Assembly: GCF_017348835.2 (NCBI RefSeq)
Contig: NZ_CP071375.1
Strand: one strand, 5' to 3'
DNA from: Escherichia coli
Lineage (GTDB): Bacteria > Pseudomonadota > Gammaproteobacteria > Enterobacterales > Enterobacteriaceae
DNA length: 64,000 nucleotides
Part shown: positions 42,914 through 43,183 of the stretch, one piece after another
Numbering within the stretch: position 1 is the stretch's first letter
How the letters are laid out: each line of letters opens with the position of its first letter
Notes under the pieces: generated by a model
Databases searched by the model: none
Seen by the model: the letters and a program-made list of their open reading frames with translations, nothing else
What the model was told of the DNA's origin: nothing
Made by a program: the position numbers and the translations under genes

Positions 42914-43183
42914 AATAATTCCACAATTGACGGCAACGTCACGTAATAGTTGCGCGGCGTGCTTGTGTTTCCTTAAAGTTAAAACTTTGATACAGATCTG
43001 ATTATTTATGCAATATGCTGTCTGATTGCATAAATATACATTAGCTGAAGCGTGATGATATAAACAATTTGCGTCTTTTGGCGTCGGGTTTGTTTCTTAA
43101 TATGTCAAAAGATTGGCTATCGACGAACTGGCGAGGTAACGCTATGTTAACGGTGTAGCTATCAGAATACGGAAGGCGCGAAG

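Follow-up and report, generated by a model that had tools for sequence, protein, structure and literature searches.

We describe a 34-bp inverted repeat upstream of dtpD in Escherichia coli that is likely to be part of an ArgR operator at the dtpD promoter. On the sequence evidence, dtpD probably belongs to the ArgR regulon, as a member that is new or has at least gone unremarked, and its ARG boxes are atypically arranged. All coordinates refer to the window, the whole stretch of 64,000 nucleotides that was analysed. E. coli has four peptide permeases, of which DtpD (YbgH) is one. Neither a physiological role nor an established regulator was found for it, and the one report on its regulation is an in vitro Cra gel shift (PMC8085971). 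The searchable literature gave no link between ArgR and dtpD or ybgH. Target tables from ChIP-chip and ChIP-exo list 62-64 regions bound by ArgR in vivo, and the dtpD site may already be among those that published ChIP supplements list, without having drawn comment. An ARG-box operator is an ordinary and well-known kind of element, not new biology; what a strong and deeply conserved ARG box offers is the testable prediction that arginine, acting via ArgR, represses dtpD.

The inverted repeat and its locus

The repeat lies between two divergent genes:

41432-42913, minus strand: dtpD (RefSeq annotation)
43184-43927, plus strand: ybgI (RefSeq annotation)
43003-43014: left arm of the dyad, TATTTATGCAAT (repeat search)
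43025-43036: right arm of the dyad, ATTGCATAAATA (repeat search)

A preliminary description of this region, made from the letters alone, had reported a perfect 11-bp inverted repeat about 90-120 bp upstream of the dtpD start. The repeat is present and had been slightly understated, as repeat search returns two 12-nt arms that are 100% complementary across a 10-nt gap. Beyond the perfect 12-mer the outer pair 43002/43037 is mismatched, which agrees with the match of 12 of 13 bp also given there. The assignment of the flanking genes as divergent dtpD and ybgI is borne out by the RefSeq annotation, and the dyad lies at 90-123 bp from the start codon of dtpD and at 148-181 bp from that of ybgI. 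When the 64-kb window was shuffled 100 times with dinucleotides preserved, perfect inverted repeats of at least 12 bp with loops of up to 30 nt occurred on average 0.07 times per shuffled window (maximum 1), against three loci in the real window; the dyad is therefore not a product of chance. Elsewhere in the window, a perfect 13-bp GC-rich inverted repeat (GAAACAGCCCCGG, 6-nt loop) stands at 8149-8181, at the 3′ end of asnB, and resembles an intrinsic terminator. Another perfect inverted repeat, AT-rich and with 12-bp arms (CTTTAAAAACTG, 15-nt loop), occupies 58905-58943 in an unannotated stretch, and belongs to some repeated element, since the surrounding 171 bp occur in a median of two places per E. 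coli genome.

The 270-bp dtpD/ybgI intergenic region is 100% identical to that of K-12 MG1655, where the dyad falls at 742,646-742,679 (a coordinate offset of +699,643 that is valid only near dtpD). The locus belongs to the core genome: of 5,422 complete E. coli genomes, 5,416 match its central 101 bp at 99% identity or better, a level that the surrounding 901 bp reach in only 3,094 of 5,423. At a larger scale, only about 11 kb separate kdpE (30972) from dtpD (42913) in this strain. The corresponding distance in K-12 is about 21 kb, and on that difference the window appears to be without the K-12 rhsC region.

Conservation across orthologous regions

Loci of ybgI were taken from 80 species, in nine of which dtpD is divergently adjacent, and four genera (Salmonella, K. 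oxytoca, Yokenella and Intestinirhabdus) were added through their DtpD orthologues, giving an alignment of 13 orthologous regions from about 11 genera. Most of the intergenic DNA has diverged in this alignment, the exceptions being a block around the right arm of the dyad and a promoter-like motif close to ybgI. Within the block, a 14-bp core, TGCATAAATATACA (43027-43040), is unchanged in 12 of 13 regions, and the single change is a TGCAT to TGAAT substitution in Yokenella. The heptamer AATATGC (43012-43018) is invariant in all 13 sequences, while the dinucleotide GT (43020-43021) is invariant in the first ten and varies in Salmonella, Yokenella and Intestinirhabdus. The conserved stretches thus span the spacer, the right arm and five bases past it. 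The left arm, in contrast, drifts, so that dyad complementarity drops from 12/12 to 8, 7, 5 and 3 of 12 across orthologues. Among 12 distinct orthologues, eight of the 12 dyad pairs depart solely through loss of pairing, no pair (0/12) has undergone a compensatory change, and the paired fraction is 82.6% against a shuffle mean of 82.3%.

The preliminary description had proposed that the dyad is a transcription-factor operator, to be checked by its conservation across Enterobacteriaceae. An operator in the dtpD control region is supported, with ArgR as a regulator that can be proposed, and neither the right arm nor its flank varies across about 11 genera. The symmetry itself, however, decays from 12/12 to 3/12; because it does so with no compensatory changes while the right arm and flank stay fixed, the 34-bp dyad is not the recognition unit.

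This pattern also bears on whether the dyad could be an RNA hairpin in the dtpD leader (or upstream in that of ybgI) with a post-transcriptional action. The 12-bp stem is predicted to fold, with minimum free energies of -11.7 kcal/mol on the plus strand and -10.9 kcal/mol on the minus strand (z-scores of -2.6 and -3.5 against shuffles), but the alignment, in which no pair is compensated and pairing is no more frequent than in shuffles, gives no sign of selection for a hairpin. An Rfam scan of 42500-43600 at E-values up to 10 yielded only noise, namely MicA at 18.4 bits (threshold 41) and the S15 leader at 14.5 bits (threshold 39.5). Additionally, the predicted -10 hexamer described below would put the dtpD start inside the right arm, so that the hairpin would not be transcribed intact. 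We regard an RNA function as very improbable.

The 14-bp core is exact wherever dtpD adjoins ybgI, and it was absent upstream of ybgI in all 71 of the 71 sampled species that have no adjacent dtpD. These counts describe co-occurrence with dtpD and do not prove ownership, since the same 71 species also lack the ybgI-proximal motif. That motif, a promoter-like pair TCGACG-17 bp-TATGTT on the plus strand at 43120-43148, keeps a fixed distance of 34-55 bp from the start codon of ybgI. The first ten sequences of the alignment all retain it, and within the intergenic region only the ARG-box block is better conserved. It is probably the promoter of the ybgI-pxpBCA-nei operon.

Short reading frames overlap the region as well. 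A plus-strand frame of 12 residues was rejected as a gene because it is broken by a stop codon in strain RIT691. A minus-strand frame at 43041-43006 (11 codons) was rejected too; it has no Shine-Dalgarno sequence, and its length and start codon (ATG, GTG or CTG) vary. The K. oxytoca and RIT691 versions of the minus-strand frame start with GTG, have 11 codons and end at the same position, and the Salmonella contig (L093) carries a 37-aa gene call at the site (1844-1957). The nucleotides are invariant, with no synonymous variation, which points to constraint at the level of DNA and not of coding.

Candidate ARG boxes

Three candidate boxes lie in this part of the intergenic region:

43025-43042: candidate ARG box A, ATTGCATAAATATACATT, 14/16 to the consensus, 17.1 bits
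42997-43014: candidate ARG box B′, TCTGATTATTTATGCAAT, 14/16 to the consensus, 16.5 bits
43004-43021: candidate box B, 3 bp from box A as in the canonical layout, ARG-like in its right half only

ArgR sites consist of two 18-bp imperfect palindromes joined by 2-3 bp, a 39-bp site in all (PMC4381063), and their most conserved positions are G4, A6, T7, A12 and T13 with the symmetric partners of these (PMC6640053). Boxes A and B′ each match the consensus WNTGAATWWWWATTCANW at 14 of 16 positions, and box A carries every one of the key bases. The left arm of the dyad corresponds to positions 7-18 of box B′ and the right arm to positions 1-12 of box A, so the perfect dyad arises from two similar palindromic 18-bp ARG-like boxes that face each other. 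The 14-mer core is itself a near-palindrome, centred at 43033.5, that agrees with the ARG-box core TGAATWWWWATTCA at 12 of 14 positions; the two that differ form the symmetric pair 5/14, at which real ARG boxes vary too.

The alignment follows the outline of a box. Invariant columns coincide exactly with positions 3-16 of box A, whereas positions 1, 2, 17 and 18 vary, as do 43022-43024, which form the 3-bp inter-box spacer in the canonical layout. The Yokenella substitution (C to A at box position 5) moves towards the consensus half-site and raises the score to 17.7 bits, though it would damage the dyad. Over the 13 orthologous regions upstream of dtpD, the score of box A ranges from 10.5 to 17.7 bits. 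The half-sites of the dtpD boxes are also those of genuine operators: TTGCATAAAAAT occurs in real boxes of argG, argR and argD, TATGCAAT in those of artJ, artP and carA, and AATACACT in those of argA and argE/C.

The ARG-box reading was tested against the literature, real operators and matrix scores. Some discount for multiple testing applies, as the ArgR match came after comparison with many regulator consensus sequences. We took 12 classical ArgR-controlled regions of K-12, in which a consensus scan recovered the box pairs, and built a symmetric log-odds matrix from 22 boxes of 11 classical E. coli ArgR operators. The best boxes of the true operators score 9.6-19.8 bits when each is left out in turn, a range that includes both box A and box B′. 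Given the local AT-rich intergenic composition, the per-position P is 1.8e-6 for box A and 3.2e-6 for box B′. In a background of 510,513 positions only five reach 16.5 bits, and three of these are dtpD boxes. The matrix also gives 16.8 bits, comparable with the dtpD boxes, to a single box at 30959-30976 (ATTGAATAACAATTCAAA), just past the 3′ end of kdpE (reading frame 30972-31649, minus strand).

Much the same letters can be read as an operator for CytR, a LacI-family anti-activator that works with cAMP-CRP, with inverted octamers one helical turn apart. The CytR motif is TGCAA-N2-3-TTGCA, or inverted octamers AATGCAAC and GTTRCATT spaced by less than about 5 or by 10-13 bp (PMC3454398). In E. 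coli only, the dyad reads TATGCAAT-N10-ATTGCATA, with 6/8 and 6/8 octamer matches, perfect TGCAA and TTGCA cores and an allowed spacing. Directly next to the left octamer is a CRP-like TTTGA-N6-TCTGA, centred at 42993.5. In Shigella, ybgH is induced anaerobically along with the CytR-regulon genes tsx, nupC, nupG and udp (PMC4229854). CytR repression normally requires flanking CRP sites (PMC3454398), however, and here the left site is weak while reading of the sequence found nothing CRP-like on the right at compatible offsets. Octamer matches (of 8 each) fall to 3+5 in RIT691, 4+5 in K. oxytoca and 2+4 in Yokenella while the ARG-box half stays invariant; the invariant block runs 8 bp past the right octamer and has its symmetry centre at 43033.5 instead of the dyad centre at 43019.5; and the Yokenella change of TTGCA to GTGAA destroys the CytR core yet improves the ARG box. 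The main text of PMC3454398 does not discuss dtpD as a candidate for the regulon. We find a CytR operator quite improbable.

Box A was also read as a LexA (SOS) box. The string TTGCATAAATATACAT agrees with CTGTATATATATACAG at 12 of 16 positions, and the neighbouring genes include phr, nei and ybgI ('radiation resistance protein'). Across 13 orthologues, however, the critical CTG and CAG of the CTG-N10-CAG core of this 16-bp palindrome are never both present: most have TTG/CAT, others GTG/CAC or GTG/CAT, and one has TTG/CAG. The strain DH5alpha is recA1. In a 2020 library screen, a 'dtpD' clone of 213 bp was reported to be induced by mitomycin C and was given a LexA site by BPROM prediction (PMC7606416), but the assays used DH5alpha, and the BPROM 'LexA sites' of that study include strings such as TTTTTTTA. 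The 213-bp MnlI clone is in any case not this site, because the dtpD promoter lies on a 411-bp MnlI fragment. We consider LexA control through box A extremely improbable.

Arrangement of the boxes

An awkward feature of the ArgR reading is the spacing. Boxes A and B′ are separated by 10 bp, or 28 bp centre to centre, where the canonical spacer is 2-3 bp (20-21 bp centre to centre). Among boxes of at least 5 bits in the 12 real control regions, most start-to-start distances are 21 bp (10 cases) or 20 bp (3 cases), and not one is 28 bp. The canonical partner of box A is instead box B, of which only the right, A-proximal half AATATGCTGT (43012-43021), with the invariant AATATGC in it, is ARG-like in E. 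coli (6.1 bits); its left half scores -10 bits and the whole box -3.9 bits. The E. coli canonical pair consequently sums to 13.2 bits, below every training operator (19.0-34.2 bits). In strain RIT691, box B (8.7 bits) and box A (13.3 bits) form a canonical 18-3-18 pair of 22 bits.

Box A is an ancient, invariant element, and the conserved half-box AATATGCTGT accompanies it at the canonical distance of 3 bp. Box B′ has a narrower distribution. It exceeds 5 bits only in Escherichia, Citrobacter, Salmonella, Superficieibacter and Pseudocitrobacter (orthologue scores of 16.5, 14.8, 11.7, 10.2, 8.4 and 6.6 bits), with scores below 4 in other genera; it is strong only in the first three and weaker in Superficieibacter and Pseudocitrobacter. 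From that distribution, box B′ looks like a lineage-specific addition that perfected the dyad.

One tentative hypothesis, about which we are on balance doubtful, is that an ancestral 'one-and-a-half box' ArgR operator gained a second full-strength box in the Escherichia-Salmonella-Citrobacter lineage, and that ArgR would bind dtpD non-canonically. The second box would sit 28 bp away centre to centre, out of helical phase and overlapping the old half-box. Binding might then involve two hexamers, each on a box of its own, or two registers that exclude one another, and a second box downstream of the start site would serve as a roadblock. If true, this would be a natural departure from the fixed 18-3-18 rule. 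The odd spacing poses a small but real question in its own right, namely how strictly ArgR needs the 18-3-18 layout.

A predicted dtpD promoter and a possible mechanism

A position-weight-matrix promoter scan places one element of the dtpD promoter inside box A:

43038-43033, minus strand: predicted dtpD -10 hexamer TATATT

The same scan finds TATATT in all orthologues, as the top minus-strand match in most species. The -35-like hexamers vary and lie 16-19 bp upstream of it (ATATCA at 43061-43056 in E. coli). From these positions, dtpD transcription would start near 43026-43027, with the boxes at about -16 to +30. An alternative predicted promoter pairs a -35 TGTATA with a -10 CATATT across 17 bp. 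A strict scan of the region for the sigma-70 consensus gave no promoter, and one weak terminator-like site was found at 43071-43084. Under either promoter choice the boxes would cover the core promoter, in the usual ArgR geometry of steric exclusion.

Another reading is that the conserved block is mainly the core dtpD promoter, perhaps together with another regulator's site, and that the likeness to ARG boxes and the E. coli dyad are incidental. TATATT is the best or near-best -10 on the dtpD strand in every orthologue, the TGTATA-17 bp-CATATT pair consists wholly of invariant bases, and AT-rich palindromes resemble several regulator motifs. An overlapping promoter hexamer could indeed account for part of the invariance, but it covers six invariant bases and not 14 contiguous palindromic ones bounded at box positions 3-16. 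Neither does a promoter account for the sole tolerated substitution, which creates TGAAT, for a second ARG-like box of 16.5 bits that lies 28 bp away, or for box scores with P of about 2-3e-6 per position. We judge this explanation unlikely.

For ArgR as the probable regulator, the mechanism would be a familiar one. ArgR typically represses through steric exclusion of RNA polymerase (PMC4381063). At dtpD, arginine-loaded hexameric ArgR would bind the boxes over the predicted -10 and start, exclude RNA polymerase sterically and so turn the dipeptide permease off when arginine is plentiful. ArgR binding, the position of the promoter and the direction of regulation are all inferred from the DNA sequence.

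Neighbouring elements

The intergenic region carries other regulator-like sequences. One of these is a Cra-like box:

43044-43057: Cra-like box GCTGAAGCGTGATG with a perfect left half, GCTGAAnCG, sited between the -35 and -10 predicted for dtpD

This box is separate from the dyad and, in the alignment, is not conserved outside E. coli proper. Cra is reported to bind a dtpD promoter fragment in gel-shift assays, and 'Cra repression' of dtpD has been described (PMC8085971). On the other side, an FNR/CRP-like sequence, TTGATacagATCTG (42987-43000), adjoins the conserved core and lies outside it; it matches FNR at 8/10 positions and CRP as TTTGA-N6-TCTGA. It is conserved in Escherichia, Citrobacter, Salmonella and Intestinirhabdus, and holds the sole intergenic GATC within an 8-bp palindrome, CAGATCTG. 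In Shigella flexneri, ybgH is induced anaerobically, and its expression is lower in an fnr mutant (PMC4229854).

Within the dtpD leader, on the minus strand at about 42958-42971 and some 45-58 nt upstream of the ATG, lies a C/A-rich sequence, GGAAACACAAGCAC, whose GAAACA is kept in several genera. It brings to mind the C/A-rich targets of the small RNA GcvB in other peptide and amino-acid transporter mRNAs. Comparison by eye with consensus sequences gave no fit for NtrC/sigma-54, NsrR, OmpR, ArcA, PhoP, TyrR or PurR, nor for Nac, Lrp, IHF, MarA/Rob, DnaA or NrdR. GalR was set aside as well, as the predicted 'dtpD' site at MG1655 741,888 falls inside the coding region.

Physiological context

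DtpC and DtpD belong to the atypical peptide transporters; they share a conserved Asp (D395 in DtpD) and have been proposed to favour dipeptides with C-terminal Lys or Arg (PMC9309889). Repression of dtpD by arginine would fit this proposed substrate preference physiologically, and ArgR control would fit the structural arguments for it in both permeases. If the two-box reading is true, it would tie the poorly understood DtpD to the uptake of arginine-containing dipeptides.

DtpD-like permeases of Hafnia and Serratia odorifera (62-67% identity) have no ARG box; we treated them as a different paralogue group and not as counter-evidence. Their genes lie directly downstream of a gene for a 713-aa Orn/Lys/Arg decarboxylase and upstream of tilS. 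Similarly, dtpC of E. coli adjoins the cad lysine-decarboxylase genes. Such settings suggest that the DtpC/DtpD subgroup is repeatedly tied to basic amino acid metabolism.

Comparison with known operators

The dtpD dyad can be compared with several groups of known sites. CytR-CRP operators (deoP2, udp, cdd, nupG and tsx) have, as the dyad does, inverted TGCAA and TTGCA separated by a helical-turn spacer (PMC3454398). Unlike them, the dyad has no flanking pair of CRP sites, and its conservation pattern is incompatible with theirs.

The autoregulatory operator of argR and the ARG boxes of argG and argD show likenesses too. The left half-site TGCAT is common to argR (TTTGCATAAAAATTCATC), argG (TTTGCATAAAAATTCAGT), argD (TATGCATAAAAAATCACT) and box A (ATTGCATAAATATACATT), and the boxes of the three operators score 16.9-18.9 bits against 17.1 for box A. 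They differ in the right half, which is ATACA in box A (as in argA and argE/C) and ATTCA in argR, argG and argD, and in the geometry of the partner box.

For isolated boxes, the ColE1 cer recombination site provides a precedent, as ArgR uses a single ARG box there. Two independently bound boxes at a non-canonical spacing are therefore conceivable at dtpD, with the difference that at cer ArgR is an accessory factor, with PepA, in recombination and not in transcription.

The artJ, artPIQM and hisJQMP operators are 18-bp palindromic ARG boxes with the same half-sites as those at dtpD, as seen for example in artJ AGTGAATTTATATGCAAT and artP ACAGAATAATTATGCAAT next to box B′ TCTGATTATTTATGCAAT. A gap of 3 bp (2 bp in hisJ and argR) separates the boxes of such operators, whereas the strong dtpD boxes are 10 bp apart and the half-box alone is canonically placed. 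At artJ, artP and argR, much as at dtpD, a strong box is accompanied by a degenerate one, and in the latter the half nearer the strong box is the better match. ArgR represses artJ, artPIQM and hisJQMP in the manner proposed here. Their operators overlap the promoter of an arginine-related uptake system, as the dtpD boxes would with the predicted promoter, and if the reading is true DtpD would join ArtJ, ArtPIQM and HisJQMP in the arginine-acquisition set of the cell.
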